This document shows positions 18,421-40,494 of a DNA stretch of 64,000 bases, piece after piece. Position numbers and translations under genes: made by a program. Numbering within the stretch: position 1 is the first letter of the stretch; each line of letters opens with the position of its first letter. Source of the DNA: an uncultured Desulfospira sp. (GTDB taxonomy: Bacteria > Desulfobacterota > Desulfobacteria > Desulfobacterales > Desulfobacteraceae); contig OY760175.1 of NCBI GenBank assembly GCA_963663165.1, positions 192,001 through 256,000 on the forward strand, given 5' to 3'. Under the pieces are notes generated by a model. The model was given only the letters and a program-made list of their open reading frames with translations, was not told the DNA's origin and made no database searches.

Positions 18421-18497
18421 GCGCCCGTAGCTCAGCTGGATAGAGTACTTGACTACGAATCAAGGGGTCGGACGTTCGAATCGTCTCGGGCGCGCCA
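18421..18497 (+). tRNA. tRNA-Arg(ACG), island integration site
   Basis: Anticodon arm CTTGA-CTACGAA-TCAAG, GTTCGAATC, CCA end. Confidence 0.97.
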
Positions 18498-18517
18498 TAA
18501 ACGATAAGGGTTTTCAG
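18451..18517 (+). repeat. att direct repeat, left copy (3' part of tRNA-Arg)
   Basis: Identical to 40428-40494. Confidence 0.97.
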
Positions 18518-18540
18518 GTTTTGGCTTGAAAACCTTTTTT
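18506..18540 (+). terminator. Intrinsic terminator after tRNA-Arg
   Basis: GGTTTTCAGG...CTTGAAAACC stem plus T-run. Confidence 0.75.
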
Positions 18541-18555
18541 GTTTTCAAACATGAT

Positions 18556-18579
18556 TTTGCCCACTTTTTGCCCACTTTT
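18556..18579 (+). repeat. Probable integrase arm-type sites
   Basis: TTTGCCCACTTTTTGCCCACTTTT, identical at 40279-40302. Confidence 0.75.
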
Positions 18580-18947
18580 TTAATCATATGGACTGGTCTT
18601 CATGGCTTGAAAATATTTCCCCAAGAAAAATGGGGTCCTTATTTAGATTGGGCCGTCAAAAAAGGGAAGGGGGCACCAGGACACCCCGGATTAGGCCAAA
18701 AATCAGCCTCCACCCTCCAGGGTGACCGGCGGGGGCTGGTCAAAAATGTAAAGGTTAAGCAAGAAAAGTGCCGCTCTGTATCCATTGGTAGTCAAGCTAT
18801 TTCAGTTACGGCATGGATCATGCTTAACATTTACATTACTTTATAATCAATATGTATGTGAATAATGAACCGCCGCGTAAAATTTTTGATCAAGGCAGGG
18901 TTTCTGCCGGATTGGGAACCGCCCCTTCCACCCGTCCGTTTTTGGGC

Positions 18948-18984
18948 ATAAAAAAGCCCCTGGCAGCGGATACCACCAGGGGCC
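18948..18984 (-). terminator. Terminator of the distal island operon
   Basis: Minus strand GCCCCTGG-loop-CCAGGGGC-TTTTTT. Confidence 0.8.
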
Positions 18985-19005
18985 TGATAGGGGTTTAGGA
19001 ATTAT

Positions 19006-19344
19006 TTACGAGTTCAACACCTGCCGGATATTGGAAGCCACGATTTTAAAATCCCAATCTTCCTGGCCTTCCTCCATCTGCCTGGCCAGACCATCCAGGA
19101 ACCTTTCAAGCCGCTCTGTCCGGGCTAATTCTGATTTGTTTATCTGTTTTTTCAGTGAAGCTACGACATCATCCATACCAACGACCATATCATCCAAGAA
19201 TCCAGCTAAAGCCCTCAAACAATCAAAATTTTGAATTGCATCCATATTTTTGGAATGGAATAAGACGGTTGATAGGAAATACATTTTTTGATTTATGCCG
19301 ACGATGTCATCATATGTGGTCCTTAGGGGATTAGATGTTTTCAT
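19006..19344 (-). CDS. Hypothetical island protein (probable start MKTSN)
   Basis: ORF overlapping the upstream gene end; helical. Confidence 0.6.
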   Translation of the reverse strand: MKTSNPLRTTYDDIVGINQKMYFLSTVLFHSKNMDAIQNFDCLRALAGFLDDMVVGMDDVVASLKKQINKSELARTERLERFLDGLARQMEEGQEDWDFKIVASNIRQVLNS

Positions 19345-19747
19345 ACTGCACCTCCAATCTTTCAACCTGAGCCCGGAAATCCGCAATCAGGTCCCTTAAT
19401 ATGTCATGGCTTGCCTTTTCCGGCAGAGAGGCAAAGAAACCCTTGCACAGGTCCTTGTATCCCTTGGCTTTCATTTTCAACTTTGGGTATTCACCAAGTT
19501 GTTGTCTCCACTGCTCATTGGAAATATCGATCAGATATTCAATCTCCTCACAAGCGTCTTTGAGCGAACCTGACAGGGTAAGAATATTGTCTTGATTAAT
19601 GACGTTGCCAGTTACAAGCTCCTCTTTGTCCAGGCACCAAAGCATGTCAGCCAGCAATTTTATCTTTCCTATTGGGTGGCATACTTCGGCAAAGATATCA
19701 TAGTGGTTCAACAGCTCTTCTTTTGTGAAATCGGCTTTAATTTGCAT
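19331..19747 (-). CDS. Hypothetical island protein (probable start MQIKA)
   Basis: ORF with G-rich RBS, coupled to neighbours. Confidence 0.65.
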   Translation of the reverse strand: MQIKADFTKEELLNHYDIFAEVCHPIGKIKLLADMLWCLDKEELVTGNVINQDNILTLSGSLKDACEEIEYLIDISNEQWRQQLGEYPKLKMKAKGYKDLCKGFFASLPEKASHDILRDLIADFRAQVERLEVQYENI

Positions 19748-20327
19748 GACTGACACCCCCTTGTTCACTTTTCCATTTTTCTATCTCTTGGGGGAAGGCA
19801 TACCAAAATTTTCGGCCAGGGATCTTGAAAGCCGGCAGGCCTTTTTTATTAACAAAAAGCTTTATCTTATTATATTCAATACCAGCAGCCTTTGTTATTT
19901 CCATTGTGCCTCTAAGAATGGTCATTTCTTCGGGTGGCGAGTTTGGGAACGGCATTCTGTTTGCTTCCACTTCCTTTTTCCGGAAATCGAAGGTAATGAC
20001 TTTTGCATAAGGGATCTCATCAAGCTTTTTTTCTTGACGTTGTATTTGATCTCTTAGCATTTCTGCTAATTCATCCCTGGTTTTCTTAAAAAACCCCTGG
20101 GGAACTCCTGCACAAGATTCTATCCGATTACCACTGAGATCTGTTCCCGAAAATTCCAAGCCAAGAACACAAGAATGCATTGAAATTTTCATCAATTCTG
20201 ACAAGAGATTTTTAGCAGAATGGATATCTTTTTCAAGTTTCTTTGCCTCTTCTCTACGTTCATATGTTCTAAGAGGAAGTTGTTCTCTAATCTTATATCT
20301 ATATTTTTCCATGCCATAAGCGCTCAT
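19737..20327 (-). CDS. Hypothetical protein with C-terminal excisionase-like wHTH
   Basis: GLPAFKIPGRKFWYAFPQEIEKW pattern. Confidence 0.6.
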   Translation of the reverse strand: MSAYGMEKYRYKIREQLPLRTYERREEAKKLEKDIHSAKNLLSELMKISMHSCVLGLEFSGTDLSGNRIESCAGVPQGFFKKTRDELAEMLRDQIQRQEKKLDEIPYAKVITFDFRKKEVEANRMPFPNSPPEEMTILRGTMEITKAAGIEYNKIKLFVNKKGLPAFKIPGRKFWYAFPQEIEKWKSEQGGVSHAN

Positions 20328-20722
20328 TATTCCCTCCTTTCTGCAATTATTTTCAATTCCTTCATTACTTCAGGGGAAACGACCGGATGCTGGTCAGGAA
20401 AGCACTCATCATACTTCCGTTCAATGAAGCGCTTGGCGTTCTCGTAATAAAATGGGTGATCGTCTCTTAATATTCTCATTAAAGGAACAATGTAATATTC
20501 CGGATTCTCCCCTCTGGCTTTTTTTCTCTGGTACAACACTTCAGCATAAATTGATTTGATCACTTCTTGATCGTGTCCCATATCTGATAGTTTTATCAGC
20601 CAAAGGTAATCATTTTCTGTTTCTTCCTTGGGGTGTTTTTCTTCTGGAAATGTTGATTGTTTTGAAAAAGGGATGATCTCAGTTTGATTGACAGGTGTTC
20701 GTGGTTTCTGACAAGATTTCAT
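20327..20722 (-). CDS. Hypothetical protein, first gene after the c4-like RNA
   Basis: GGAGG RBS before ATG 20722. Confidence 0.65.
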   Translation of the reverse strand: MKSCQKPRTPVNQTEIIPFSKQSTFPEEKHPKEETENDYLWLIKLSDMGHDQEVIKSIYAEVLYQRKKARGENPEYYIVPLMRILRDDHPFYYENAKRFIERKYDECFPDQHPVVSPEVMKELKIIAERRE

Positions 20723-20740
20723 TTGTACCTCCAAAAACAA

Positions 20741-20813
20741 AATGGGGGTTAGGTGTCTCAAGGTTTCAGAAAAACCTTTGCGGTCCTTTCGGATTGCGCC
20801 ACCATACCCCAAT
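20741..20813 (-). ncRNA. c4/CI-type antisense RNA candidate
   Basis: Three-way junction; TTCTGAA and TTGAG segments complementary to upstream CTCAAAATTCAGAA; promoter TTGACA-17-GAGAAT at 20922-20894. Confidence 0.6.
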
Positions 20814-20978
20814 TATATTTTGAGTACTGCATATACAAATAAATATACCGGATTAACGGCCCGGTTCACCGTTCTGAATTTTGAGAGGTCTCCATTCTCA
20901 TAAAATTTGGGCATGGTGTCAAGGCTTAATTTTGTGGCTCATATTTTCGGGATTATGATCCACAAACAGAATTGAGGT

Positions 20979-21194
20979 TCATTCATTAACACCAAACCGC
21001 CGCTCCAGCCGGGGAAAAACCTTCAACAGCAGCCGGGTACATTTCAGGGCCTCTTCCCGGATCACTGCCGGGTCTTTCACTTGGCCGCTGTTATCTTCCA
21101 TCTGGGGGCAACCGGAGCAATCAAATCCGGCGCTGTCTTCAATGGCGGCCCGGGTCAGGCAATCGTTATACTGAGAACACCATATGTTTCTCAT
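20979..21194 (-). CDS. Small four-cysteine protein
   Basis: CSQYNDCL...CSGC; start uncertain. Confidence 0.6.
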   Translation of the reverse strand: MRNIWCSQYNDCLTRAAIEDSAGFDCSGCPQMEDNSGQVKDPAVIREEALKCTRLLLKVFPRLERRFGVNE

Positions 21195-21203: not shown

Positions 21204-22580
21204 TCAGGCCGCCAACCTGCTCAAAATTCCCTGGTTTTCATATGTATAATTACGGCTCTTGGCTGATGCCGCAAAGACAGGGTTCAACCCATCCACAAAG
21301 TCAAAAATTACAGCCTTATCTTTTCCGGGTGCTGGCCGGAGTGCCCGGCCTATGTACTGGATCAGGCGGCCTGAAAATTTAACCGGCGTTGCCAGGAACA
21401 CAGTGGATATTCCCGGCAGGTCAAACCCTTCTCCGATAAGCTGGCCTGTGGCAATCAGGTAACGGCATTCATCATTCTGCAGGGCCTTGATTATCCGTTC
21501 CCGGTCACTTTTGGTGGTGGCTCCGGTCAATACCTCAGCCTGAATTCCATGGGCATCCTCCAGGATATTTTTAAGCACCTGGCAGTGTTCTTTTCTGTCA
21601 GACAGAACCAGGCTGACACCATGGCCGTTATTCTCGGCAACCGTCCTGCAAATCAACCGGTTCCTGGTTGAATCTTCGGTCAGTTCTGACAGGGCCTTAG
21701 AATAGAACTCGCTGGCATCCACAAAGGGAGAAAATCCGGTCTTAATCCATTTGACCTCTGCCGGGCAAAGGTTGCCGGCCTGGACAAGGTCCTGCTTATC
21801 AATCCTGCCGGCAACGTCCCCGACGTGCCAAAAGATGACCTTTGAAAGTCCGTCACGTCTCCAGGGGGTAGCCGTGAGCCCAAGCAAGTACTTACAGTCA
21901 AAGGCGGTCACGGCATCGGTAAAGGTCCTGCTCGAAACTCTGTGGCATTCATCCACAACCAGGTGGCCGATATGGGGAACAACATCATCCACCCGTTTGA
22001 AAAGGGTCTGAACCGTGGCAACGGTGATCCGGTCCCCGATGGTGAACTTACCGCTGCCGATTATGCCGATTTCATCTCGGGGGATTCCCAGGAACTGTTC
22101 AATCCGGTCAATCCACTGGTTCAAAAGTTCCTTGGTATGAACGATGATAAGCGCCGGCTGTTTTCGCTCAGCAACCAGGTAAAGGCCCATGACGGTTTTC
22201 CCGGCACCGGTCCCGGCTTCAAGTAACCCTGAGTCACGGGAAAGAATCCCATCAACCGCCTGCTGTTGCAATGGCCGGAGCTTTCCCTGAAACTGGAATT
22301 CAGCCGGAGCTAGGATCCTACGTTCGTCAATTATCCGGATATCTTCACCCATTCGGGTACATAAAAAATAAAGTTGCTTTGCTGCCCCTCTGGGACAGGC
22401 CAGGAAGTCCGGAGCCTCATGATAAAATTTCAACTCCCGATCAATTCCCCAGGTGGCCCGGCCCATTTTTTTTGCTTCGGCATATTTAGGATTGGGCATG
22501 GTCAAACGCCGTTTGACTGCTTCCCGGGTTGCCGGATTCAGGCCGGTTAAAATTGCCTTGCTGTTCAGTTTAAATATCAT
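21204..22580 (-). CDS. SF2 DEAD/DEAH-box helicase
   Basis: GTGAGKT, DECH, LTATP, EGFD, QYIGRALR. Confidence 0.92.
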   Translation of the reverse strand: MIFKLNSKAILTGLNPATREAVKRRLTMPNPKYAEAKKMGRATWGIDRELKFYHEAPDFLACPRGAAKQLYFLCTRMGEDIRIIDERRILAPAEFQFQGKLRPLQQQAVDGILSRDSGLLEAGTGAGKTVMGLYLVAERKQPALIIVHTKELLNQWIDRIEQFLGIPRDEIGIIGSGKFTIGDRITVATVQTLFKRVDDVVPHIGHLVVDECHRVSSRTFTDAVTAFDCKYLLGLTATPWRRDGLSKVIFWHVGDVAGRIDKQDLVQAGNLCPAEVKWIKTGFSPFVDASEFYSKALSELTEDSTRNRLICRTVAENNGHGVSLVLSDRKEHCQVLKNILEDAHGIQAEVLTGATTKSDRERIIKALQNDECRYLIATGQLIGEGFDLPGISTVFLATPVKFSGRLIQYIGRALRPAPGKDKAVIFDFVDGLNPVFAASAKSRNYTYENQGILSRLAA

Positions 22581-22584: not shown

Positions 22585-25446
22585 TCAATCCCCTACTCCC
22601 AACAAAGAAAGCCCCTCAGCATTGGCTGTGACCTGGGCCATTTCCATAATTTCCTGGAAAATCATCTCCAAGGCCGGGGCCAGGGCAGATGATTCAACCT
22701 GTATCCCTATCGGCTCCCCGCTTTCGATCCGGGCGGCCTGGGCATTGGCAAGACGGGTTTCGGCAGCCACAAGGCTTTCCTGCATGTTGATTTCTTTTTC
22801 CAGGAGATCGTAAAGCTCATAGAAATGAGCCCCGCCGCCCTCTGACAGGCTCGAAAACATAGTGCTGACCGTATCGGATGTTGCTTCAATTGCCACCCCA
22901 AGGCTTTCCATGGTGGCCTTGACTTGTTCAGTTTCAGCTTCAAGTGAGGCAATGTTCAGCTTTGCATCCCATTCAATAGCGGTGTTCATGGTGTCAGTTA
23001 GATTGCCGAACATATTTTCAATTGTCTCAAGTTTTGCCTTATCAAGCTCGGTCTGAATCTCTAACGTTTTTGCCGGTTCTAAAGTTTCCTGAATATCTTT
23101 AGTGGCCTTGGTTGCTGATGTCATATCCGCCTCCACTGTATAGGAAACGGTTGTGCCGTCCTCAAGCTCAACTTCCAAGGTCTGCCAAGCCTTTTTGGCC
23201 TCTTCTATGGGATCAGTTTTTACGGCGATATCAACGATTTTTTCTCCCGGGATTTCTTCAAGCATGGAAATGGCGGCCTTGAGTTCTCCGGCATCTATCA
23301 ATGATTGAACCAGGATCTGTTTTTCTTCGGGAAGATCTTGCAGGCCATTGTAAAGGGTTCCCAGATCCCCCATGGATACGTTGGCAAAAACATCAACCTT
23401 TTTTTCATCCGGGATATCGGCCAGGGTCCCGTTTATTGAGTTGAGATCCGAGTTCAGGCCGTCAATCCCGGTCATTTCAATCTTGGATTCTTTTTTTTCC
23501 GGGATCTTATCTAATTTTTTGGGAATGGCTTCGATCTTTTCGACCGACTCAGCAGCGGTGTCATTCAGTTCAGTGAAATTGACCTTCATGCCGGTGAGTT
23601 TTTCCGTTGCGGCTGATGCGGCATCGTACATTGCCTTTTTAGTCTCAGTTTTCCAGCTTTGCACCTTAGTGATATTCTCTTCGATATCATCCGAGAATGC
23701 ACCAAACATGAACGTCTTTGAAAACGTGTTCCCGGCAAGCATGAGATCCTCAACGATTTCAAGGAATGCAAGCTTTAGCGTGTTCCAGCCAAGTTTCATT
23801 GTTTCCAAGGCCCCTGAAATGGTATTGATAACCACATTGAACACGGGGGCAAGGTTATCCGCAGACTCTGACATTGCAAGAATAATTGCCGTGAATTTTG
23901 GGCCGAACTCAACAACAGCTTTAGAGAGTGCAAGGATTTGCCCGGCGGCTTCCTGGGTCTCTGTTTTAAGCTCGTTGAAACTGCTGATTGACCCTTTGAT
24001 GGATTCCCAAAAAGGTTTGAACCCGTCCACCATCCCGGCAGTGGTGTTCAACAGACTTGATATCGTGTTGAGAACGCCTTGAAGTGCTTCTTTCAAACCT
24101 TCCGAAGTAGTCAAATCAACATCGCTGAACAGGCCTCTAACTGAATCTTCCAGGTTTTCAAAGGAGTCAATCAGGTCCTTAAACTCAATTCCTTCAAAAG
24201 CTTCCGGCAGGTTCTTAGCGATTGCTTTTAAATCAGCCCCAAGCTGATTCCCAAATTCATTGATTTTCTCGAAAATTTCATCAAAAGTGCCGTCCTTCAC
24301 CATCTGCTGTAAAGCGAGAACAATTGAATTCCCGCCGTTAATGACGTTTTTAGAGGCATTTTCAAATTCGGTACCGATCAGGGTAGCCAGGTTTTCCAGC
24401 CTGGCCTTGAGTACGTCAACAGCATGTTCTGCTGACCCAAAATAACTTTCAAGTTCCTTGGCTGCTGACCCGGCAGCGCCCATGGCCGTTTCCGTTACCT
24501 CAAGGGTTTTATTCATTGAGGAAAAGGCCAGGGCCATCTTTGCCGCCTGGTCTTTTCCGACAAGTTGCTGGGCGTAATACGTTTTTTCAGTGTCGGTCAG
24601 GTTTTGGAAAACCGCCTGAACCTCATAGAAGATATCCCGGCCGGACTTCATCTGGCCGTTTACGTCGGTCTGCGATATCCCGAGTTCGGCCAGGGCCTGG
24701 GTAACCCGGGGCGTGTCTGATGTTAAATTGAGAAGGCCTGTTCTAAATGCCCGGCTCACCTCATCCCCAGAACGGAAAACCTCAATTACCGGTGTGAGAA
24801 TGCCGGCTGTTTCCTCAAATGAAAAACCCATCTGTGAGGCAATCGGGGAGAGATCGGCCATGCCTGTGGCAAGCTCTTCCACATTGGTGGCGTAGTTGTT
24901 GGAAGTTTCATTCAAGATATCAAGCAGCCGGTTCGCTTCTGATGCAGGAGAACCAAAGCCCTTCAAAGTGGATACCAACAGGGCACTTGCTTCTGATGCG
25001 TCAACGCCGCCCACGATAACAAGGTCCATGGCATTTTTGGCAAGCTGCATGGCTTCCTCAACATCATACCCGGCCTGTTTGAAATTGGCTGTGGAATTGA
25101 GAATATCTGATGCTGATTGCCCATACTGGTTTGACAGGTCGATAGCGGCATCTTGGGCTATTGCCAGGCTTTCCGGGGTTTCGTCCCCAAGGACTTTGTT
25201 TAGTTCAACCGCTGCGCTTTCAAACTGCATGGCTTTGGTGAAAGCATATGCCAGGCCACCAACCGCCATAGCTGACAAGGCGGCATCCGCTTTAATGACC
25301 CCATCGGCTATATCCGCAAAGGGATCAGCCACGGAACCCACTATGCTTTCAAAACTACCCAGGGTCCCGGACAAGGAGTTTATGGTCTGGCTGACCTGAT
25401 CGTCCCCCTGGAACAATATTTTTACGGTTTTCTCAAGATCGCCCAT
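22585..25446 (-). CDS. Phage tail tape-measure protein (TP901-like core)
   Basis: AMQFESA...ETSNNYATNVEELA...GFSFEETAG...ALAELGIS core; long amphipathic repeats. Confidence 0.85.
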   Translation of the reverse strand: MGDLEKTVKILFQGDDQVSQTINSLSGTLGSFESIVGSVADPFADIADGVIKADAALSAMAVGGLAYAFTKAMQFESAAVELNKVLGDETPESLAIAQDAAIDLSNQYGQSASDILNSTANFKQAGYDVEEAMQLAKNAMDLVIVGGVDASEASALLVSTLKGFGSPASEANRLLDILNETSNNYATNVEELATGMADLSPIASQMGFSFEETAGILTPVIEVFRSGDEVSRAFRTGLLNLTSDTPRVTQALAELGISQTDVNGQMKSGRDIFYEVQAVFQNLTDTEKTYYAQQLVGKDQAAKMALAFSSMNKTLEVTETAMGAAGSAAKELESYFGSAEHAVDVLKARLENLATLIGTEFENASKNVINGGNSIVLALQQMVKDGTFDEIFEKINEFGNQLGADLKAIAKNLPEAFEGIEFKDLIDSFENLEDSVRGLFSDVDLTTSEGLKEALQGVLNTISSLLNTTAGMVDGFKPFWESIKGSISSFNELKTETQEAAGQILALSKAVVEFGPKFTAIILAMSESADNLAPVFNVVINTISGALETMKLGWNTLKLAFLEIVEDLMLAGNTFSKTFMFGAFSDDIEENITKVQSWKTETKKAMYDAASAATEKLTGMKVNFTELNDTAAESVEKIEAIPKKLDKIPEKKESKIEMTGIDGLNSDLNSINGTLADIPDEKKVDVFANVSMGDLGTLYNGLQDLPEEKQILVQSLIDAGELKAAISMLEEIPGEKIVDIAVKTDPIEEAKKAWQTLEVELEDGTTVSYTVEADMTSATKATKDIQETLEPAKTLEIQTELDKAKLETIENMFGNLTDTMNTAIEWDAKLNIASLEAETEQVKATMESLGVAIEATSDTVSTMFSSLSEGGGAHFYELYDLLEKEINMQESLVAAETRLANAQAARIESGEPIGIQVESSALAPALEMIFQEIMEMAQVTANAEGLSLLGVGD

Positions 25447-25456
25447 GTTTCACCTC

Positions 25457-25789
25457 TCAGTTCAATGTTTTTTGGGAAGGGGCCGGAGCGCCCCCGGTTG
25501 ATACAATTCGTTCGTGGATTTCTGAAATCCAATCCCGACAGATTTCTTTGATTTCCGGGGGAGCATCTTTTTTATCAATTTCGGCAAGGAACCTTTCTGA
25601 CACTTTTTGCATATGCTCCCCGATAGGCGGAAACGCTTTCATAAGGGCACCGTGTACCCATGCTTCAAAATGGGCGTTGGCTTCAAATTTTGCCCTCAAG
25701 ATTGCCAAGTCTCGGGCCTGGAGAGCGATCGCGGCCCTCAGTCCTTGTATCTGCTTTTCAAGCCGTTCTATTTTTTCTGAATCTGACAT
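25457..25789 (-). CDS. Hypothetical helical protein upstream of TMP (tail-chaperone position)
   Basis: ORF with AGGA RBS; function inferred from position only. Confidence 0.6.
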   Translation of the reverse strand: MSDSEKIERLEKQIQGLRAAIALQARDLAILRAKFEANAHFEAWVHGALMKAFPPIGEHMQKVSERFLAEIDKKDAPPEIKEICRDWISEIHERIVSTGGAPAPSQKTLN

Positions 25790-25879
25790 TTTTAATTCCT
25801 TTTACCGTGTGTGGGCATAGACCCTGATCCATCCCGTTTTCCGCCGGAAGGGTCAGGGCCTATGCTGAATCTAAAAATT

Positions 25880-26693: not shown

Positions 26694-26891
26694 ATCAAAA
26701 AATCCTTTTATTCCTGTTCTTGTTGTGTGCTGGCTGACCAAACGGCCAGCCAGCATGAAAGGAGACCTGGGGAACATTCTATCCCCAGGCGACTCATAGA
26801 AATGGACTAAGCCAGCAATGCTCCAAAGAGCTGACATGTAGCCCCCGCCTTATTATCTTAAAGGGGGCAGGCCGGTGTGCCCCCATTGTGG

Positions 26892-28589: not shown

Positions 28590-28621
28590 AAAAGCTCTGA
28601 TTTGCTCTAAAATTCTCAATT

Positions 28622-31989: not shown

Positions 31990-33516
31990 TCATACTAATC
32001 GGAGTTGAAAGGGAGTGGACAGACGATCTTCCAGCCACATGTAATCCAGCCACGGGCCGGACATGGTATCCCGGACTAAACGAATCAGGCCCCGTGCGCC
32101 GGTATCTTCAATAATCCTGGCAAGCCGCTGCGAGTATCTGGCCAAAACGTTAAACATATGGCCCAGGCGCATCAAGGCATGATACCCTTTCATGACGTTC
32201 CAATCATACGAAAAACAGTGCTCGTACTCATATCCATGATGTTTCTCAACGAGAATACCGGTTTCAATACACCAACGGGAACGGGCGGCTATGTTGCATC
32301 GTTCGTGAAGATTAAATCTGTCCAAAGGTTCGCTGGACAACCACACATGACGACTATTTTTCTTTTCCGGTTGACCGCTTTCCCGGCTAACCTCTTTCCA
32401 GCTCTCTTTGCATTCAACAACGTGCAGGATTTGACTTTTCTTGCCGTTCGGACCAAACCGGTAGTCAATGGCGTTGATCCACCGAAAAACCTGTTTCCTA
32501 TTGCCCCATGTGTGTTGGTGGCAGTTTTCTGTATCGAGTGCGGCAAGCGTTTCAAATTCATTCATTACGCTGGGTAGAGCGTCATCTTTCAGTACAATCA
32601 TGAACTGCCATTTGTTTGTTCGGCAAATTTCTGCCACGGGGCCCTTGGCATAAAGCCCATCCAAAAGCACCATAATTTTTAGGGCGGGAAATGCCGCCTT
32701 CAGGCAAGAGGCTAACCGGTAAAACGCCTTGAGTTCGCAGTCCTGCTTATCATTAGCGGTATCTCCTTCGGTGTAGCTCAGGATTTCGCTTATCAGCGGA
32801 ATGCTCATGCCATCGGAAAACGCAAGATTAGCTTCCAGAACATAGACATGATACTGTTTCCTGGTGCCATCCTCTTTCTTGATGTTACGTTCCAGGCACT
32901 CTTCATCCCAAAGCCAGTCGCGTTTGAATTTACCTGTACCATCTATGGCAATCGGATAACAGCCATTGACCAGGTACCGTCGAAATTTCTTTTTCCGGAT
33001 CAGATCTCTGACCAGATCGAGATGAAGCTTCTTGATTTGATTGATATCAATCTTAGACAATAGGCGTTTTAACGTATCATGATGGGGAAGCGTTTCAAGC
33101 TCCGGGAAAAAATATTGAAGATTCTTCCAGAACATCGGCCGGCTCATTTCTTTGTTGGCCTCACGGCAAGAAGCCATCTGAAACACAAAGGTCAGTATCC
33201 CATAGATCATGAGTGTGGATATTTGGTGTTTTATCTTCTTAGGGTTTCGAGGGTCTTCAATCTTGGCCATACGTTTGAGCAGAATGGGCAGCTTAGCGCG
33301 AAAAATACTCATTTTCTCAGCCACGGCCTCATTGCGGATGCGCCCCTCCTGTTCTACACTTTCATATCGGCATTTGCAGTTAGAAATTGTGCCATGAGAG
33401 GGCGGCTGAAATCCCCTGGCCTCTTCATCCCGACGTAATTTTCTCTGCTCCTTTTTAAACTGCTTTCTTTTGGCCTTTATCTCCTCACGATTGGGGCGTC
33501 GGATAGGCTTGCTCAT
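31990..33516 (-). CDS. DDE transposase
   Basis: IEDPR, IAIDGT, LDGLYA, RSRWCIE. Confidence 0.9.
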   Translation of the reverse strand: MSKPIRRPNREEIKAKRKQFKKEQRKLRRDEEARGFQPPSHGTISNCKCRYESVEQEGRIRNEAVAEKMSIFRAKLPILLKRMAKIEDPRNPKKIKHQISTLMIYGILTFVFQMASCREANKEMSRPMFWKNLQYFFPELETLPHHDTLKRLLSKIDINQIKKLHLDLVRDLIRKKKFRRYLVNGCYPIAIDGTGKFKRDWLWDEECLERNIKKEDGTRKQYHVYVLEANLAFSDGMSIPLISEILSYTEGDTANDKQDCELKAFYRLASCLKAAFPALKIMVLLDGLYAKGPVAEICRTNKWQFMIVLKDDALPSVMNEFETLAALDTENCHQHTWGNRKQVFRWINAIDYRFGPNGKKSQILHVVECKESWKEVSRESGQPEKKNSRHVWLSSEPLDRFNLHERCNIAARSRWCIETGILVEKHHGYEYEHCFSYDWNVMKGYHALMRLGHMFNVLARYSQRLARIIEDTGARGLIRLVRDTMSGPWLDYMWLEDRLSTPFQLRLV

Positions 33517-34388
33517 CCGATCTGCCTCAAAACCTGACGGAAATTATTCACCAGCGGATAAACGAAGATTTTTTTGGGACTGGTCCTGTAACTTCTACCC
33601 TGCCGGACAAGCCCCTTTCCGCTGGTCATGCCAAGGTGTCTAAAATTGGCCGCCCGATAGCACGTCCCATCGAAGTGTTGTGGGTCGACAAAGGTCTCCA
33701 GCAAAGCCGGCCGATACCCCCAGCTCCGCTCCCAGTCTTGCACCAGATCTCTGACAATTTTACCCAATACGTGACTTGCCAGATACCGGACCTTGACCCA
33801 CGGAAAAATCAGGAAGCGTCCATTGTTTACAACAAATCCCAAGTTTCTTAAGCGTTCGTTGGTGCTCCAGCCGATCCATCGATCCCTCGGGGTCAGCGCC
33901 TTGGCCGCCCCTGAGAACAGCATACATCCCAATATGCGCTCTTGAGCTTGTATCAAATAACGCAGATGACATCCGAACGGCCGCTTGTAGCCAAGATAAT
34001 GGTAACGGTGCAGGTATTCATTAACCAGTGAGCGTTCTTCCGTGTCTTGTGCGACCCTGACAACGATCGGCCCGATATCCGAAAGCGTGCCCGCTACCTT
34101 ATCTTGGGGCTGGGTCCTGTCGTCCGCTACCGGCAGTTTCTGTTGAGAGCCCTTTATGGGACCGAGTTTCTCTTTTTCAGGCAACCGTATGAGACCTTGG
34201 GACTCCAGTCGCAGAAGCAATTTCCGGCAGGCATCCACCTTGTTCCTACCAGAAGCGGTATACCAGCCCAAATGTTCGCATATTGTATGAGCCAGTTCAG
34301 TCTGACTCAAATTCGAAAAGGTCTCTACTGTCTCGCAAATCTGTATAAGCTCTTCGTCTTTAATTTTCCGGCCACATTGGACAATCAC
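33513..34388 (-). CDS. DUF4338/DruA-like IS passenger protein
   Basis: RYHYLG, RDRWIGW, NNGRFLIFPW, LASHVL, LETFVD, GTCYRAAN. Confidence 0.88.
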   Translation of the reverse strand: MIVQCGRKIKDEELIQICETVETFSNLSQTELAHTICEHLGWYTASGRNKVDACRKLLLRLESQGLIRLPEKEKLGPIKGSQQKLPVADDRTQPQDKVAGTLSDIGPIVVRVAQDTEERSLVNEYLHRYHYLGYKRPFGCHLRYLIQAQERILGCMLFSGAAKALTPRDRWIGWSTNERLRNLGFVVNNGRFLIFPWVKVRYLASHVLGKIVRDLVQDWERSWGYRPALLETFVDPQHFDGTCYRAANFRHLGMTSGKGLVRQGRSYRTSPKKIFVYPLVNNFRQVLRQIG

Positions 34389-35152
34389 GACATCCTCCTC
34401 TTCAAATGTAGTGTCTCGATTGGGGGGGCGCTCATTCGTACCCTATGCTACATTATCAAAAGGCCGAAATTTTGTCTATTTAAATTTTGCGACAAAATAA
34501 TTTTGGATATCGAGCTGCGTCATTGATATCATTGACTATAAATTTTCATGCGTCAGCACTGTGTCTGGGTTCCGAAATACCGTTTTCGGATATTGGGCGG
34601 TGAAATAGGGAGAGAGGTTGAGAACTGCATCAGAGCTTTTGCTGAACAAAAAAGTTGTGAGGTCGTGGAGTTGAATGTTCAAATAGACCATGTTCATCTG
34701 TTGGTCAAAGTACCACCCAAACTATCAATCTCGGATTTCATGGGCATTGTTAAAGGCCGGACGGCGATACGGGTTTTTAATAAATTCAAGAATCTGAAGA
34801 AAAGGCCCTATTGGGGTAATAAGTTTTGGGCACGCGGATATTGTGTTGATACAGTTGGCCTTGACGCTGATATGATACGAAAGTATGTGAAATATCAAGA
34901 ACGAAAAGAAAAACGAGCCGAACAGTTAGATCTGTTTAGCTAAAATTAAAACGGGACGCTTCCCTTGCCCCCTCAGGGGGCAAGGCATACTAACCCCTTT
35001 TAGGGGTTCCCAAAGCCTGGCCCTCTGGGCCAGGATATTTACTGGCATGAACTGACATGTATCCAATTTTTCCGTTTTTCATGCTGCATTGAATACTCTG
35101 CCCTCCCAAAAAAAGCTGGACTCCTGGCTCATGAAAGGTTATATAGATTTGC

Positions 35153-36025
35153 ATGAGCAGGACTTTAACCATTCAAGGACGTGAATTTTCAGAAGTTGAT
35201 ATACAAACGATACGCCATTTGATTAACGACAATCCCGCCTGGCACCGCACTCGTTTATCCAAAGAATTGTGTGCTCGCTGGGATTGGCGCACGGAAAAAG
35301 GTCTGCTCAAGGACATGGCCTGTCGAAGCATGCTGAGAAAACTTGAGCAAAAAGGGATGGTCACACTTCCCGTTGCCCGTCATAGCGGTAACCGTCAGCG
35401 GCGTATTCCCGATGTCCCCCATGATTGTAAGCCGATAGAAACCACTTTGCGTAAGATCCGCCCGATACAATTGATACCGGTATCGGGCCGTGGAGATATT
35501 GATGATTTATTCCATTGCCTTATGGATCGATATCATTACCTTGGGTGTAAAGGGTATGTCGGAGAACATATGAAGTATATGGCTTTTGATCGCAATTCTC
35601 GTCCGGTTGCCTGCCTGCTTTTTGGCTCAGCAGCATGGAAAACGGCCCCTCGTGACCGATTCATCGGTTGGGATAGGTCGGCTCGTCGCAGGAACCTGCA
35701 TATGACGACCAACAATACCCGATTTTTGATTTTGCCATGGATTCGAATTCCCCATCTTGCCAGTCATATTCTGGGTTCATGTCTTAGGCGGCTGAGCCGG
35801 GACTGGACAGCTAAATATGGTCACGATATCTGTCTGGTAGAAACTTTCGTGGATCGATCACGCTTTGCCGGAACTTGCTACCAGGCGGCAAATTGGCAAA
35901 AAATTGGTCAAAGCAAAGGGCGAAGCCGTCAAGACAGGCACCACAGACTTCAGGTGCCGATAAAAGACATCTATGTATACCCGTTGACTTCCAATTATAA
36001 AAAGCAGCTATGCACACAACCTTGA
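35153..36025 (+). CDS. DUF4338/DruA-like IS passenger protein
   Basis: RYHYLG, RDRFIGW, NNTRFLILPW, LASHIL, VETFVD, GTCYQAANW. Confidence 0.88.
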   Translation: MSRTLTIQGREFSEVDIQTIRHLINDNPAWHRTRLSKELCARWDWRTEKGLLKDMACRSMLRKLEQKGMVTLPVARHSGNRQRRIPDVPHDCKPIETTLRKIRPIQLIPVSGRGDIDDLFHCLMDRYHYLGCKGYVGEHMKYMAFDRNSRPVACLLFGSAAWKTAPRDRFIGWDRSARRRNLHMTTNNTRFLILPWIRIPHLASHILGSCLRRLSRDWTAKYGHDICLVETFVDRSRFAGTCYQAANWQKIGQSKGRSRQDRHHRLQVPIKDIYVYPLTSNYKKQLCTQP

Positions 36026-36082
36026 GGGTTTCAGTCATCGAAATGACAGGTAATTTTTCAACCTGCAATTCGAGGACTGATC

Positions 36083-37483
36083 ATGAAACTTGCTTCCACT
36101 ATAAGGGATATTCGAACCCTTCTAACAAAAGCCGTAGCTGATTTCCAAAACCATCAAAATGCTAATATCCTGTGTGAGCAGGTACGGAACGGCCTCTTCA
36201 TTATTGTGGAAGCATTTCTGGTTCCCGTCATTGAAAAGGCACTGTCTGACCCGGATCTTTTATCTGAACTGAAAATTGGTGCCGGTAAAAAGGGACTGCG
36301 TTTCAACGGATACCGCCCCAGCAGCATTCGATTATTGACAGGAACTACCCTGAGCATCCGATCCCCTTACTTTTCAAAAGTTGTTTCCAAACAACGGCCA
36401 GGCCCTAAAACAAAAAAACGACAAAAGGGGACAGGCCGCCATTTTGGGCTTGATTACCTTGGTTTTATCGGCAGGTGTTCAACGCTGTTCGCTTCGTCGG
36501 TGGTCCATGCAGCATTGCTCTGTCCCTCTTTTGAAATTGCCCGAAGATCCCTGGAAAACCATGCAATCAACTTAAATGTCAAAACCATACGCCGCATAAC
36601 AATGAATCTTGCACAGGAAGCTATGCCCCTGCGTGGCCGGGTATCTTTTGGAGATACTGATCGCGTTGGTGGCAAAACGGTTCTGGTTTGTATCGACGGC
36701 GGTCGCCTTCGAGAACGGAGGCCAAAACGGGGACGTAAATCAAAAGGCCAAAAGCGGCAGGGATATCATGCTGAATGGAAAGAACCCATTCAGTTTGTCA
36801 TACATATTGTCGATCCGGACGGCACAATATCCAAAAAACACTTGCCGGTTTATGATGCCACAATGGGCGGTATTGATGCCGCTTTTGATATTCTTGAGAT
36901 CTACTTGCGTGAATTAGATATTCCCAAAGCCAAGCGTGTTGTTTTCTGCTGTGACGGTGCACGTAGCTATTGGAAGCGAACAGGCCCGCTGGCCAAACGG
37001 CTTGAAATCGAATCCTATTATGAGGTAATCGACTACACCCATGCAAAACAGAATTTACATGAAATCGTGGACAAATTGCCAAAGAGAATCCCTATAAAAG
37101 AAAGAAACCGGATAGCAGAATCTTGGAAGAACCTCCTTTGGGATGGCAGATTCAAAGACCTTAGAAAAGAAATTGTAAAACACATTACGTACCCTAAAAG
37201 GCGCATAGAAGCACTATCCAAATTTAAAAGTTACTTCGTGAAAAATCGAAACAGAATGCAGTATCGCCAGTTCCGCAGCCTGAAAATACCTACTGGCAGC
37301 GGCTGTGTTGAAAGTGCAATACGTCGGGTTATAAATCTCAGAATGAAATCACCGGGTATATTCTGGAAACCGGAAACATCCGAATCAATGTTGTTCTTAA
37401 GGAGTCAGCTCCTTTCCGGGAGGTGGAACATCTTGACTGACAATATCTTCATACAAATTCGGTCACTTTGCTTAGGCCACTAA
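36083..37483 (+). CDS. Mutator-like (ISKra4/ISLre2) DDE transposase
   Basis: CIDGG, DGARSYW, DYTHA, GSGCVESAIR...RMKSPGIFW. Confidence 0.85.
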   Translation: MKLASTIRDIRTLLTKAVADFQNHQNANILCEQVRNGLFIIVEAFLVPVIEKALSDPDLLSELKIGAGKKGLRFNGYRPSSIRLLTGTTLSIRSPYFSKVVSKQRPGPKTKKRQKGTGRHFGLDYLGFIGRCSTLFASSVVHAALLCPSFEIARRSLENHAINLNVKTIRRITMNLAQEAMPLRGRVSFGDTDRVGGKTVLVCIDGGRLRERRPKRGRKSKGQKRQGYHAEWKEPIQFVIHIVDPDGTISKKHLPVYDATMGGIDAAFDILEIYLRELDIPKAKRVVFCCDGARSYWKRTGPLAKRLEIESYYEVIDYTHAKQNLHEIVDKLPKRIPIKERNRIAESWKNLLWDGRFKDLRKEIVKHITYPKRRIEALSKFKSYFVKNRNRMQYRQFRSLKIPTGSGCVESAIRRVINLRMKSPGIFWKPETSESMLFLRSQLLSGRWNILTDNIFIQIRSLCLGH

Positions 37484-38208
37484 ATGGGAATGCACCCCCT
37501 TTGATTGTATTTTCCTGGGAAATTTCCATTTTCGACATTTTTTATTATCTCTTTTGCATTAGATATATCCCTCCTAAAGGTCCTTATAACAGCGTCATCG
37601 TCGCCACTTCGATTTGGATCTATCTTATTTATAATGGCTTTTATAGTTAATCCCTCCTGCTTTAAATCAAAAATTTTAAGGTATCGCTCGATTTCATCAT
37701 AGCGAATGACTTTTTTTCTATATTTTGCAATTTCGTCTTGGATTATTTTTAGAACCTTTGGTTTTGCCATTCTGTATGGCTCAATAACAAATGCCCAGTT
37801 CTTTCTAAATTTTGTCTGTGAGTCATCAAAAAGGAAATTTTTAAATTCTTGTATCGTTGGATCTCTACCTAATGTGCGTTTAAGGAAGCATATGCTACCA
37901 TCAATTTCTTCTTTCAGGTAATCATCATATTGCCGAATACACATTTTCTGTTGAGCTTTTTCGTTATTTTTAAAACAACTTATTTTATATTCATACCATT
38001 CTTCAAAAGTAAGCTGATGGATATCTAAATTGTGTAGATAGGTATAAACAATTTTTGTACAAGATTGAGGGTGATTGGGATTTATGAATTTATCAGGAAG
38101 GGGTTTGTCAGTCCGCATATGTTCACAGAGTTCTCGATAGTTTTCGCTCCGATGTAAATATTCCCACCATAACTTATAAAATTGTTTAGGATAGTCTGAA
38201 TGTCTCAT
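37480..38208 (-). CDS. Putative transcriptional regulator (DUF6499/DUF2285-like); last 5 aa come from the IS
   Basis: WWEYLHRSENY N-motif and RYLKIFDLKQEG HTH-like C-terminus. Confidence 0.65.
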   Translation of the reverse strand: MRHSDYPKQFYKLWWEYLHRSENYRELCEHMRTDKPLPDKFINPNHPQSCTKIVYTYLHNLDIHQLTFEEWYEYKISCFKNNEKAQQKMCIRQYDDYLKEEIDGSICFLKRTLGRDPTIQEFKNFLFDDSQTKFRKNWAFVIEPYRMAKPKVLKIIQDEIAKYRKKVIRYDEIERYLKIFDLKQEGLTIKAIINKIDPNRSGDDDAVIRTFRRDISNAKEIIKNVENGNFPGKYNQRGCIPI

Positions 38209-38242
38209 CTTATAACCCCTGCATGATCCCTGATTAAAGAAC

Positions 38243-38308
38243 CCTGGGAAAGACGGTTCAGGGAAGCCGCCTTTTCAACCCCGGTGATCAGCCGGGATCT
38301 ATCCCAGG
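38243..38308 (-). promoter_or_regulatory. Structured 5' leader RNA (three-way junction)
   Basis: CCTGGGA/TCCCAGG closing stem; loop TCCCTGA complementary to TCAGGGA near the RBS. Confidence 0.55.
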
Positions 38309-38317
38309 AAGACAGAA

Positions 38318-38542
38318 TTATTCAAAGGCTTTCCGGTCTATGCCGGATTGCCTGATAATTGAAAGCAGGGTCCCCTTTTTCAGTTCCTTGTGGTCAGGAA
38401 CCGGAACGGTGATGGTGGACCCTTCAATTTTCTTTTGCATAATCACATGACTGCCTTTTTGACGGATTTCTTCAAATCCATGGGCAGACAATATTGAACA
38501 GGTTTCCTTTCCAGATAAGACCCGCAGCTTAACCAACGGCAA
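38318..38542 (-). CDS. hicA: HicA toxin
   Basis: GF..IRQKGSH...VPDHKELKKGTLLSI. Confidence 0.9.
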   Translation of the reverse strand: MPLVKLRVLSGKETCSILSAHGFEEIRQKGSHVIMQKKIEGSTITVPVPDHKELKKGTLLSIIRQSGIDRKAFE

Positions 38543-38750
38543 CCTCCATCTGGGTGATGTAAATTTCCCCTTTAAGCCGGGTTTCTATTTCTTCCGGGGA
38601 TGCACATTCAAAAAATAATTCAAGGGCTTCCTGCAAATTCCCCCTTGCCTCAGCAACGGTTTCCCCCTGGCTGGCTATGTCCAGTTCCGGACACAAGGAA
38701 ACGTAGCCGGTCCCCTCTTTTTCAATGATTGCTGTAAGAAATTTTTTCAT
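38529..38750 (-). CDS. hicB: HicB antitoxin (short form)
   Basis: YVSLCPELDIASQGETVAEARGNLQEAL. Confidence 0.9.
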   Translation of the reverse strand: MKKFLTAIIEKEGTGYVSLCPELDIASQGETVAEARGNLQEALELFFECASPEEIETRLKGEIYITQMEVAVG

Positions 38751-38770
38751 GTGTTGAGTATCCTTTTAAT

Positions 38771-39010
38771 TTAAATTGGCTCCAGGCTGATTTTCAACCG
38801 GCAGCCTACAGCTTTGGCGTATTTTCGCAAAAGGTTTATAGATGGTGACTGGTTAGGTCCCCATCCGCCATGTTCAATTCTTGTCAATACAAGAAGTTTA
38901 GTGTCCATGTCCTTTGCAACATCTTCCTTGGTCAGACCTGCCCTTTTCCTTGCTTTAACCAATTCATTAAGAAAGGTTAATTCTTCACCAACGATATCAT
39001 CTTCCTTCAT
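38771..39010 (-). CDS. XRE/HigA-like HTH protein
   Basis: ARKRAGLT.EDVA...PSINLLRKYAKAVG. Confidence 0.8.
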   Translation of the reverse strand: MKEDDIVGEELTFLNELVKARKRAGLTKEDVAKDMDTKLLVLTRIEHGGWGPNQSPSINLLRKYAKAVGCRLKISLEPI

Positions 39011-39017
39011 AAAAGAA

Positions 39018-40259
39018 TCACCTCATGTTCACCACATTGCTCTTTGCATGAGATTTTTCCTTAAATACTTTCTCCATGGTCACCGCCGCCTTTCTGTTCC
39101 GATCCGGGGCAAGGTGGGCGTATCTCTCTGTCATGGTCAGGGTGGCATGGCCTAAAAGTTCTTTTACATCATAAAGACTGATGCCATTCATAACCAGCCA
39201 GCTTGCAAAGGTATGGCGCAGGGTATGGAATGTTACCCGTTGTTTACGGTCCGCGATACCATCGTTTAGCCCGGCTTTGTCCACGGCCCTCATGAATGAT
39301 TTTGAAACCTTTACTATTTTTCCCCCACCTCTGGCCTGAAAGACCAAATCATTTTTAAGGCCCGTATCGCGGTCTCTGAAAACGGCTTTAACATCGGCGG
39401 TCATAGATACAGTCCGGGTTTTACCCGATTTGGTGTTGATATCCAGCAGGGTGACTAAGTCATGCTCAAAGTCAATATCCTTCCAGGTGAGGGAGAAAAT
39501 CTCCCCGGCCCGTAATCCACAATGAAGTGATAACAGGGCCATTTCATACATCTGCCGACTTGCCTTTTCAAGTAAGCCCAAAAGGGTATGGGCCTCATCA
39601 TGGGATAGGAATCTAACCCGTTTATTGTCGTATTTCGGCTTTTTTACCTTAGTAGTGGGGATGTCCCCCTGGAAAAATTCTAGCCGTTCTGCGTGCCGGA
39701 ATATCTGTCCCAAGGTGGTTAAAGCATACTCAACCGTCCGGGGGGCTCTACCTGCTTTTGCCATTTTCTTTTTAAGACGTTCCAGATCAAAGGTTGATAC
39801 ATCCTTGAATGGTTTATCGCCCATGACAGGATCAATCCACAAGCGGAAGAGTATTTCTTCTGTGGCAGCGACCTTCTCTTTCTTCTCCTGTGATATGGAT
39901 GGATAATAGATCTGTTTAAAATAGGTGCCCACAGGCATGCTGTCCTTTGCTTCCTGCTCTTGACGTTTTTGTTCTTGGAGTTCTTTTTCTTTTCGTTCTT
40001 CGTCAGATTTAACTTGCTTAGTCCTATGGGTTTCAATTCCCGCCCCGGCCTTTGCCTCTTCTTTCAACTCATTCATCCGGACAATAGCCTTGTCAAGCGT
40101 CCATCCGTCAGACGCCCACCCAAGCGCCGAATTTATTCGTTTGCCGTTGAACTGAAAACGGCAAGTGAAATAAATATCAGGTTTAACCCCGTGCTTTCTA
40201 ATTGGGTGTTTTTTGATCCGGATACCTTTGTGAACCACTTCCCATTTTTCTTTTGCCAT
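39018..40259 (-). CDS. int: Tyrosine integrase (probable start 40259, 413 aa)
   Basis: GLRAGE, HTLRHTFAS, LGH, TERYAH. Confidence 0.95.
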   Translation of the reverse strand: MAKEKWEVVHKGIRIKKHPIRKHGVKPDIYFTCRFQFNGKRINSALGWASDGWTLDKAIVRMNELKEEAKAGAGIETHRTKQVKSDEERKEKELQEQKRQEQEAKDSMPVGTYFKQIYYPSISQEKKEKVAATEEILFRLWIDPVMGDKPFKDVSTFDLERLKKKMAKAGRAPRTVEYALTTLGQIFRHAERLEFFQGDIPTTKVKKPKYDNKRVRFLSHDEAHTLLGLLEKASRQMYEMALLSLHCGLRAGEIFSLTWKDIDFEHDLVTLLDINTKSGKTRTVSMTADVKAVFRDRDTGLKNDLVFQARGGGKIVKVSKSFMRAVDKAGLNDGIADRKQRVTFHTLRHTFASWLVMNGISLYDVKELLGHATLTMTERYAHLAPDRNRKAAVTMEKVFKEKSHAKSNVVNMR

Positions 40260-40427
40260 TATTTGCCCCCCTAAATTCTTTGCCCACTTTTTGCCCACTT
40301 TTGAGCTGAAATAAGGTGTTTTCATATGAAAATAAGTGAAAGTAGGATACTGCCAAAAAGGGATAATGTCAAGTAATATCAATGCGTTTGTGTGGTTTTA
40401 TGAAAATATGTGAAAGTGTTAAAAACA

Positions 40428-40494
40428 GACTACGAATCAAGGGGTCGGACGTTCGAATCGTCTCGGGCGCGCCATAAACGATAAGGGTTTTCAG
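40428..40494 (+). repeat. att direct repeat, right copy
   Basis: Identical to 18451-18517; lacks the 5' part of the tRNA. Confidence 0.97.

Follow-up and report, generated by a model that had tools for sequence, protein, structure and literature searches.

A 22.07-kb island (positions 18451-40520) was analyzed in a 64,000-nt stretch of DNA, hereafter the window, from an uncultured Desulfospira sp. (contig OY760175.1; the genome comprises 6.74 Mb in one contig). The island is bounded by attachment (att) repeats at a tRNA-Arg gene and is probably a phage-derived integrated satellite that builds chimeric virions, with a length of about 16.1 kb once a recent 5.9-kb nest of insertion sequences (IS) is subtracted. 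In the best explanation of its gene content, the satellite derives from and parasitises lambda-like siphoviruses, which are characterized here by a large terminase (TerL) of GpA type, a portal of the lambda family, a prohead protease of S49 type, a cement protein of DUF2190 type and a tape-measure protein (TMP) of TP901 type. This reading was strengthened because four other att-bounded elements with a TMP gene were recovered, and because a small island protein, rep146, proved to be a duplicated capsid-targeting motif of helper-type proteases. An earlier note, made from the letters of the window, had proposed a satellite that modifies both the head and the tail of its helper; the satellite part of this proposal is retained, whereas modification of both structures is only plausible.

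All sizeable open reading frames (ORFs) of the island, except those of the IS insertion, lie on the minus strand at spacings of 4-90 nt, and one strong terminator closes the run. The genes of the packaging and virion part of the run are as follows.

27778-28269, minus strand: terS, Nu1-type small terminase (PF07471, 35.1 bits, cut-off 30; phrog_57, 1.6e-27)
27511-27735, minus strand: Znr74, a small Cys4 protein with weak Zn-ribbon matches (E 0.003-0.008)
26892-27488, minus strand: cc198, a long helical hairpin from a family of ~200-aa proteins
26397-26837, minus strand: rep146, in which the C-terminal motif of phage S49 prohead protease/scaffold proteins occurs twice in tandem
25880-26356, minus strand: cement158, a capsid cement or decoration protein of DUF2190 type, with a C-terminal helix after the decoration domain
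25457-25789, minus strand: orf110, an orphan ORF in the position of the tail assembly chaperone
22585-25446, minus strand: TMP, 953 aa, full length
21204-22580, minus strand: SF2 (ResIII/Helicase_C) helicase (Pfam, PHROGs), which begins 4 nt past the TMP stop

The identity of the TMP was supported by three family models (PF10145, 7e-42, 144 bits against a cut-off of 33.2; TIGR01760, 152.6 bits against 28.8; phrog_4211, 3e-56). Residues 1-949 aligned to phage TMPs with both ends conserved, and the protein exceeds the relatives examined (831-907 aa) by 46-122 aa. The length of a phage tail is proportional to that of its TMP. Both the TMP and the SF2 helicase had been recognized in the earlier note, and the family matches agree with it. 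A tail assembly chaperone function was considered for orf110 and set aside as a positional inference, as the protein had no homologue and no Atlas match; its only weak match was a 103-aa ORF before the TMP gene of another small element (L045), with an E-value of 0.015.

The gene order of related phages was obtained from 80 metagenome loci kept in a scan with the cement alignment, using the loci with enough context. In the head part of this order, terS is followed by TerL (GpA), a small DUF6148 or helix-turn-helix (HTH) ORF, the lambda-family portal, the S49 protease and the cement gene; the major capsid protein, connectors, tube, chaperone and TMP come after the cement gene. The island genes terS, Znr74, rep146, cement158 and TMP are collinear with this lambda-like operon. 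The phage genes missing between them are TerL, the portal together with the protease domain, the block from capsid to chaperone, and the tail tip genes. Homologues of Znr74 lie ~3 kb upstream of the cement gene in 13 of the 80 loci, and matches to rep146 lie directly upstream of it in 20. The Zn-ribbon assignment of the earlier note received no more than the weak matches listed above.

The repeat protein of the earlier note was confirmed as rep146, which contains two copies of a motif of ~40 aa and no protease domain. In seven of nine phage S49 protease or scaffold proteins this motif is the extreme C-terminus (the last ~40 residues), the best match being 60% identical. Prohead proteases and lambda Nu3-type scaffolds are directed into the capsid interior by their C-terminal tails. 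The motif also stands alone in one copy at the end of a 119-aa protein of another small element (L026/L153). Since the motif is duplicated and stands without a protease domain, rep146 looks like the product of a change of function rather than of decay. Its motif composition suggests that rep146 is a candidate scaffold mimic resembling CpmB of SaPI1.

The cement protein scored just below the Pfam cut-off for DUF2190 (PF09956, 23.4 bits against 24). However, the assignment, which the earlier note had also made, is supported because 11 of its 47 homologues carry PF09956 and because its fold matches decoration proteins. The AlphaFold2 model (mean pLDDT 84.9) returned eight matches in the PDB at E ≤ 0.001 by Foldseek, every one a capsid decoration protein or the base of a head fibre, including the HFTV1 decoration protein (E 7.6e-7) and the phi29 gp8.5 head-fibre base (E 3.9e-6), with weaker matches to the proteins of T1 (E 1.4e-3) and TW1 (E 5.5e-3). 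A homologue with 63% identity is found in locus L053 within a complete phage module, and a 79%-identical cement protein (P0002) is present on a 906-kb contig and was not found in 160 genomes of the family. The last 35 residues of cement158 resemble a motif of several longer homologues and are followed by a helix; this C-terminal extension presumably recalls the anchor motifs of head fibres or tail fibres. A profile comparison gave no relation between cement158 and a 252-aa ORF of L026.

The coiled-coil protein of the earlier note corresponds to cc198, which was modelled as an all-helical protein with a long hairpin (pLDDT 90). Its homologues number 23 at E ≤ 0.001, of which three are close and full length, and no relative was found in IMG/VR. 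A scaffold-like role may be envisaged for it. Two other assignments were tried and rejected. A Psu-like fold had emerged as an Atlas lead (0.90, with low recognition), but Foldseek gave no match at E ≤ 0.001 and placed the Psu chains at ranks 15 and 40 with probabilities of 0.10-0.14. An origin as a protease or scaffold fragment was dismissed on account of the absence of a match to the nine phage proteases and the existence of full-length homologues of ~200 aa.

The 27 island ORFs were scanned against Pfam, PHROGs and NCBIfam, and 12 of them matched no Pfam family. In Pfam and PHROGs, none of the ORFs matched a family of capsid, portal, TerL, tube, tip or lysis proteins, in agreement with the earlier note as regards capsid, portal, TerL, tube and tip genes, and no ORF resembling a baseplate hub was found in the same two databases. 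Moreover, tblastn with the TerL, portal, major capsid and tail proteins of related phages revealed no fragment in the island, and the protease and long-cement queries from these phages matched only the intact rep146 and cement158 ORFs. Given these queries and the compact ORF spacing, no truncated or frameshifted structural gene and no noncoding scar was detected in the island.

Relatives of the TMP were recovered from 21 other genomes among 400 sampled in the bacterial order and from nine IMG/VR loci. Among these relatives, L022, L044 and L046 are complete lambda-like phages, with genes for a GpA-type TerL, a portal, an S49 protease, head decoration, the capsid, Neck1 and the tail. In addition, four small elements of 12-16 kb were identified in the same bacterial order or in IMG/VR; each is bounded by att repeats at a tRNA gene and encodes an intact TMP (845-892 aa) together with a partial virion kit.

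L045 (record), 16.4 kb, at tRNA-Cys: integrase, primase, RepA, SF2 helicase, terS, TerL, TMP and HicBA
L029, 16.2 kb, at tRNA-Arg(cct): integrase, HTH_17, Neck1, TMP and D5 primase
L026/L153, 15.8 kb, at tRNA-Leu: integrase, ligase, TMP, the 119-aa protein with the rep146 motif, D5 primase, S49 protease, Neck1 and an Xis-like protein
L024, 12.4 kb, at tRNA-Leu: integrase, a protease-capsid fusion, HTH_17, TMP and D5 primase

The island shares with L045 its Rep protein (40% identity), SF2 helicase (53%) and HicB (43%), and other pairs of small elements have in common a Neck1 gene, a D5 primase, an M41-like protein or an integrase. This all-against-all comparison shows that the small elements, as judged from their gene content, form a mosaic network. 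The L045 record is rated linear and 35% complete by IMG/VR. A protein of ~260 aa with sub-threshold matches to Peptidase_M41/M50B is common to L045 (8732-9541) and L029 (13982-14746) at 30% identity, and a neighbouring ORF of ~90-100 aa is also common to both.

In a quick maximum-likelihood tree of 20 TMPs, those of the small elements were scattered among phage TMPs. The L045 protein grouped with that of phage L070 (support 100), the L029 protein with that of L078 (92), and the island protein with those of L025 and L080 (91); the labels of L025 and L032 in this tree are based on ORF maps only. Taken as a group, the relatives suggest repeated acquisition or retention of the TMP gene.

The replication module lies upstream of terS and comprises the following features.

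31218-31478, minus strand: orf86, labelled alpA in the earlier note; no family in Pfam, PHROGs, NCBIfam or an HTH_17 check
30442-31080, minus strand: prim-pol type primase (phrog_13901, 2.5e-32; phrog_1829)
28913-30445, minus strand: replicative helicase with a DnaB N-domain and an AAA_25/RepA-like domain (Pfam)
28889-28950: iteron-like repeats (family D1) at the 3' end of rep, putative replication origin
28622-28873, minus strand: orf83, DUF2730 at E 9e-4, below the cut-off
28270-28621: gap of 352 nt that precedes terS, where a promoter or cos site may lie

Among named records, the one nearest to the island Rep gene is a metagenome-assembled genome (MAG) of Desulfobacter postgatei (L037, contig QKDP01000020.1), which encodes a 72%-identical homologue; the iteron-like region is 79% conserved there, the sole intergenic blastn match against all loci. 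In L037 the Rep gene stands beside unrelated small ORFs and an integrase gene, with neither terS nor TMP. Therefore, the replication module circulates among different islands. L037 was set aside, as it lacks the terS-to-TMP module despite the similarity of Rep.

The borders of the island and its distal end contain the features listed below.

18421-18497, plus strand: tRNA-Arg (acg), the integration target, with its 3' part within the att repeat (ARAGORN)
18451-18543: attL copy of a 93-nt direct repeat, 96% identical to 40428-40520
40428-40520: attR copy of the 93-nt direct repeat, 96% identical to 18451-18543
18556-18579 and 40279-40302: 24-nt repeat (family D3), 100% identical copies near both ends
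18954-18985, minus strand: strong terminator-like hairpin (14 pairs and a T-run) after the last island ORF
19006-21194, minus strand: five accessory ORFs (126, 145, 196, 161 and 71 aa) without families

The 24-nt repeat is a tandem of a 12-nt unit, with one copy 12 nt inside attL and the other in the 5' part of the integrase gene, and may be an arm-type site of the integrase. The five accessory ORFs showed no defence family in PADLOC, apart from generic helicase matches.

At the opposite end, the integration and regulatory genes are separated from the replication module by the IS nest.

39018-40382, minus strand: tyrosine integrase (PF00589, 4e-31; also PHROGs and NCBIfam)
38771-39010, minus strand: XRE-type HTH regulator (HTH_3; Pfam, PHROGs)
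38318-38750, minus strand: HicB-HicA toxin-antitoxin pair (HicA 4e-20; Pfam, PHROGs)
37480-38208, minus strand: orf242, with an IS inserted at its stop codon (native 237 aa plus five extra residues)
31585-37497: 5.9-kb nest of three IS elements with plus-strand genes (Pfam, NCBIfam, genome copies)

The outer element of the nest is ISKra4-like, has inverted repeats of 19 nt and is flanked by a target duplication of 9 bp. An IS200-like element interrupts it 19 nt from the left end and is itself interrupted by a third IS at 31785-34561 with 17-nt perfect inverted repeats. The insertions are recent, because other copies in the genome (eight full-length copies and fragments of one IS, nine and fragments of the other) are 99.4-100% identical; the nest destroys no island ORF. 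Both multi-copy IS types carry a DruA-like (DUF4338/PF14236) ORF and a transposase, of 466 aa in the ISKra4-like type and of 508 aa in the DDE_Tnp_1_assoc type. The IS nest, the HicAB pair and the XRE regulator had been overlooked in the earlier note. At positions 38326-38597 of the window, contigs of three public runs omit 270 nt at hicA-hicB and carry 36 other letters instead, the likely source being a similar locus elsewhere or an allelic variant.

The island SF2 helicase is 63% identical to a chromosomal paralogue located outside the window (G000:C1:660707-662077; locus L151, 14708-16096), whose neighbours are the housekeeping genes for ribosomal S1, SppA, Sua5 and cytochrome c3. Therefore, the island helicase belongs to a family that has a host member too. 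A second phage-like region at 657-662 kb of the same contig (G000:C1), suspected from S49 and SF2 matches, was discarded as housekeeping DNA containing these same four genes.

The island is present in public sequencing runs of two studies. In a run labelled with another organism it is identical, IS nest included, at a depth of ~14. Short contigs with depths of 188-245 are ~90-97% like parts of the TMP gene and diverge at both ends, and one run of the first study yielded a 623-nt contig (depth 138) that matches most of the cement gene exactly and has other sequence on either flank. The parts of the window with this high-depth likeness are 22753-22939, 24523-24931, 25394-25448 and 25868-26276, at depths 10- to 20-fold above that of the island. 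These contigs may be leads to a helper phage or a sibling element, and nothing more. An apparent joint between 40520 and 40279 was rejected as a circle junction, as it results from attL mapped onto attR together with the 24-nt repeat, and contigs cannot show rare excision.

Several known satellites provide precedents for parts of this gene set. According to PMC12987554, PICI-like elements (PLEs) of Vibrio build chimeric tails, their virions containing the satellite's own TMP to the exclusion of that of the phage; tmp and chaperone genes occur in all PLEs, and putative tmp genes occur in PLE-like elements and in some cf-PICIs (phage-inducible chromosomal islands of the capsid-forming kind). The island resembles PLEs in lacking capsid genes, in encoding its own full-length TMP and in the proposed replacement of the helper TMP in helper-built tails. 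The PLE helper is a lytic myovirus and a tail assembly chaperone and a baseplate hub are encoded by the PLE, whereas the likely helper of the island is a lambda-like siphovirus, no chaperone or hub is recognizable in it and no Rta-like inhibitor is known for it. With cf-PICIs carrying a putative tmp, the island shares the integrative satellite form, and the 12.4-kb element L024, with its protease-capsid fusion and TMP, resembles the type. Since the island has no capsid, portal, TerL or connector genes, it is not capsid-forming and hence not a cf-PICI.

Like Gram-negative PICIs of the cos type, the island has a terminal tyrosine integrase, att repeats at a tRNA gene, a primase and a replicative helicase, a packaging gene of small-terminase type and, without the IS nest, a length of ~16 kb (PICIs, ~10-18 kb). 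In contrast to them, no AlpA was found in it, its terS is of Nu1 type and not Rpp, and it carries virion genes (TMP and cement), which classical PICIs do not. It thus agrees with the PICI definition only in part.

Psu of P4 stabilises and decorates capsids. The island resembles P4 in having its own decoration protein for capsids made of helper subunits; however, cement158 has a DUF2190 beta fold and not the Psu fold, and no alpha-type primase with a D5_N domain was found in the island in Pfam. The island accordingly falls outside the P4-like group as judged by Psu, by Sid or delta homologues and by the D5_N alpha primase.

In SaPI1, CpmB competes with the scaffold for a site on the capsid protein, according to Dearborn et al. 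(2017, PMC5644958). CpmB is a small satellite protein carrying the capsid-binding end of the helper scaffold; rep146 may be another and could likewise occupy that site and alter capsid size, but rep146 consists of two tandem protease/scaffold C-terminal motifs and has no sequence relation to CpmB. The EPIP satellites of Mycolicibacterium (11 kb; PMC12822802, a preprint) carry terS, a scaffold gene and a TMP, and form particles with longer tails. These are likewise small elements that rely on a prophage for the remaining virion parts; they differ in size, in their serine integrase, in their head-to-tail adaptor and stopper and in their actinobacterial hosts, whereas the integrase of the island is a tyrosine integrase and its ORFs matched neither adaptor nor stopper families in Pfam or PHROGs.

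From this comparison, a satellite-encoded TMP is a known trait, published for PLEs in a 2026 Nature paper (PMC12987554) and for EPIPs in a 2025 preprint (PMC12822802), and the novelty that the earlier note had attached to it has been overtaken. The new points are the group of hosts, a probable helper of siphovirus type, the joint presence of terS, a scaffold mimic, a cement protein and a TMP where no capsid gene is carried, and the mosaic set of elements. Literature searches on satellites and tape measures gave no paper on such elements in sulfate reducers, which does not prove their absence.

As a satellite, the island would work as follows. Upon helper infection or induction, it would excise and replicate with its prim-pol and RepA-like helicase, and its TerS would redirect the GpA terminase of the helper to island DNA. 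Through its two motif copies, rep146 would compete with the helper protease or scaffold for the capsid protein, for which CpmB is the precedent, and may act jointly with the helical cc198. The cement protein would decorate or stabilise the resulting capsids, in a role like that of Psu in P4, and the island TMP would replace the helper TMP in otherwise helper-built tails, as in PLEs. DNA entry that depends on the TMP is the target of some superinfection-exclusion proteins. With a private TMP, the satellite could escape TMP-directed blocks, be they tail-assembly inhibitors or superinfection exclusion in helper lysogens.

The same genes could also be the residue of a lambda-like prophage at tRNA-Arg that lost TerL, the portal and protease, the block from the major capsid protein to the chaperone and the tip genes by successive deletions, so that functionless relics remain in an immobile element. 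We regard such decay, the most serious competitor of the satellite reading, as unlikely. It would account for the phage head-tail operon order retained by Znr74, the rep146 motif, the cement gene and the TMP, and collinearity is equally expected from stepwise deletion of a prophage. However, the junctions all lie between intact, closely spaced ORFs, and no pseudogene or fragment of TerL, portal, major capsid protein or tail genes was found. Complete phage modules do contain the 63%-identical cement homologue (L053) and relatives of the TMP (L022, L044, L070 and L080), but the 953-aa TMP of the island is intact, and rep146 is a tandem duplication of the protease motif and not a truncated protease. 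The earlier note had set its reading against homologous loci that are complete prophages with deletion scars, or an ORF that is a capsid or TerL remnant: homologues of Znr74, the repeat motif, the cement protein and the TMP were indeed found in complete phages in the same order, whereas neither a deletion scar nor a TerL, portal or capsid remnant was seen. Invasion by three IS elements, the absence of a helper of the searched families from the genome and the absence of the island from the relatives searched would all fit a relic. On the other hand, the replication module of prim-pol and RepA-like helicase is of island or plasmid type, common to L037 and L045 and not to the full phages examined, and four other complete att-bounded elements of 12-16 kb carry a similarly reduced kit.

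Two further explanations are each very improbable in our view. In one, the island is an anti-phage decoy that is never packaged, and its TMP and head-accessory proteins poison tail or capsid assembly in lambda-like phages and protect the host population. Interference of satellites and prophages with virion and tail assembly is on record (e.g. PMC11364771 and PMC10884400), a TMP that is non-cognate or a capsid-binding peptide that is bivalent might plausibly have a dominant-negative effect, and the genome has no resident helper of the searched families. Nevertheless, the island keeps terS and a replication module, which defence alone would not need, its accessory ORFs match no PADLOC family beyond generic helicase matches, and the TMP of PLEs serves the satellite's own transfer, according to PMC12987554. 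In the other, the island is a plasmid-like or conjugatively mobilised integrative element that gained phage structural genes by recombination, with no functional link between these genes and the element. The 72%-identical Rep in island L037, which is without the terS-to-TMP module, and the 63% chromosomal paralogue of the SF2 helicase in a housekeeping context are compatible with this explanation, but the general family scans (Pfam, PHROGs, NCBIfam) showed no relaxase, type IV secretion system or oriT-type genes among the 27 ORFs, and the phage-derived genes form one tight operon with terS.

Several observations weigh against the satellite reading itself. The att repeats and the integrase described in the earlier note, and the primase, rep and terS of its one-strand alpA-pri-rep-ori-cos-terS core, are well founded (93-nt repeats at tRNA-Arg, PF00589, phrog_13901, DnaB_N/AAA_25 and PF07471/phrog_57, respectively), and the genes do lie on the minus strand. 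The run is, however, interrupted at 31585-37497 by the IS nest with its plus-strand genes, and three elements of the core in the PICI sense were not recovered. orf86 matched no family, and a trace of HTH_17 was seen solely in orf196, which lies close to attL at the opposite end, with a sub-threshold E-value of 0.024; the ori amounts to the iteron-like repeats at 28889-28950, which are not diagnostic; and nothing recognizable as a cos site emerged from the intergenic blastn against all loci or from the repeat search. Likewise, no tail assembly chaperone is recognizable in the island, orf110 being an orphan. The three recent IS insertions stand between the replication-packaging operon and the end with the integrase and regulator, and the operon may have been silenced by them. 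The presence of TMP in all small elements holds by construction, because TMP was the search query. Excision, replication and packaging of the island are predictions, and the contigs of the public runs gave no evidence of them.

The helper and the distribution of the island pose similar difficulties. The earlier note had called for a lambdoid helper prophage, which was sought in the island's own genome. The genome gave 0 matches to PF05876, PF05065, PF05136, PF03354, PF03237 and PF04860, which stand for the GpA terminase, two other TerL families, portals of lambda and HK97 type and the HK97 capsid family; the island TMP gene is its only PhageMin_Tail gene. With phage proteins as tblastn queries, only a host SppA-like protease and the chromosomal SF2 helicase were matched. 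Therefore, any helper must come from outside. The island was not found in two genomes of the same genus, and the rest of the 160 family genomes yielded one weak partial match, with the cement query only. Since the island was unseen in relatives, long-term upkeep of its exact architecture is unsupported.

If the island and the four small elements are read jointly, a wider picture can be drawn, which we put forward tentatively and hold to be doubtful as a whole. The bacterial order would hold a mosaic network of tRNA-integrated satellites of 12-16 kb, in which a private TMP is the one constant virion gene and the TMP of each lineage comes from a different lineage of helper-type phages. This TMP would deliver satellite DNA into cells, helper lysogens included, that block the helper TMP, or would permit tail assembly while that of the helper is inhibited. 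rep146 would represent a previously undescribed form of capsid redirection, in which tandem protease targeting peptides bridge or block sites on the capsid protein.

Satellite tape measures entered the literature with a demonstration in Vibrio PLEs and a sighting in a mycobacterial satellite in 2025-26. If the island is a satellite, as we consider probable, it and its four relatives would extend the trait to bacteria of sulfate-reducer type, to helpers of siphovirus type and to elements without capsid genes. Furthermore, the duplicated motif of rep146 offers a concrete and testable hypothesis for the redirection of capsid size in a system unrelated to SaPI, P4 and PLE.

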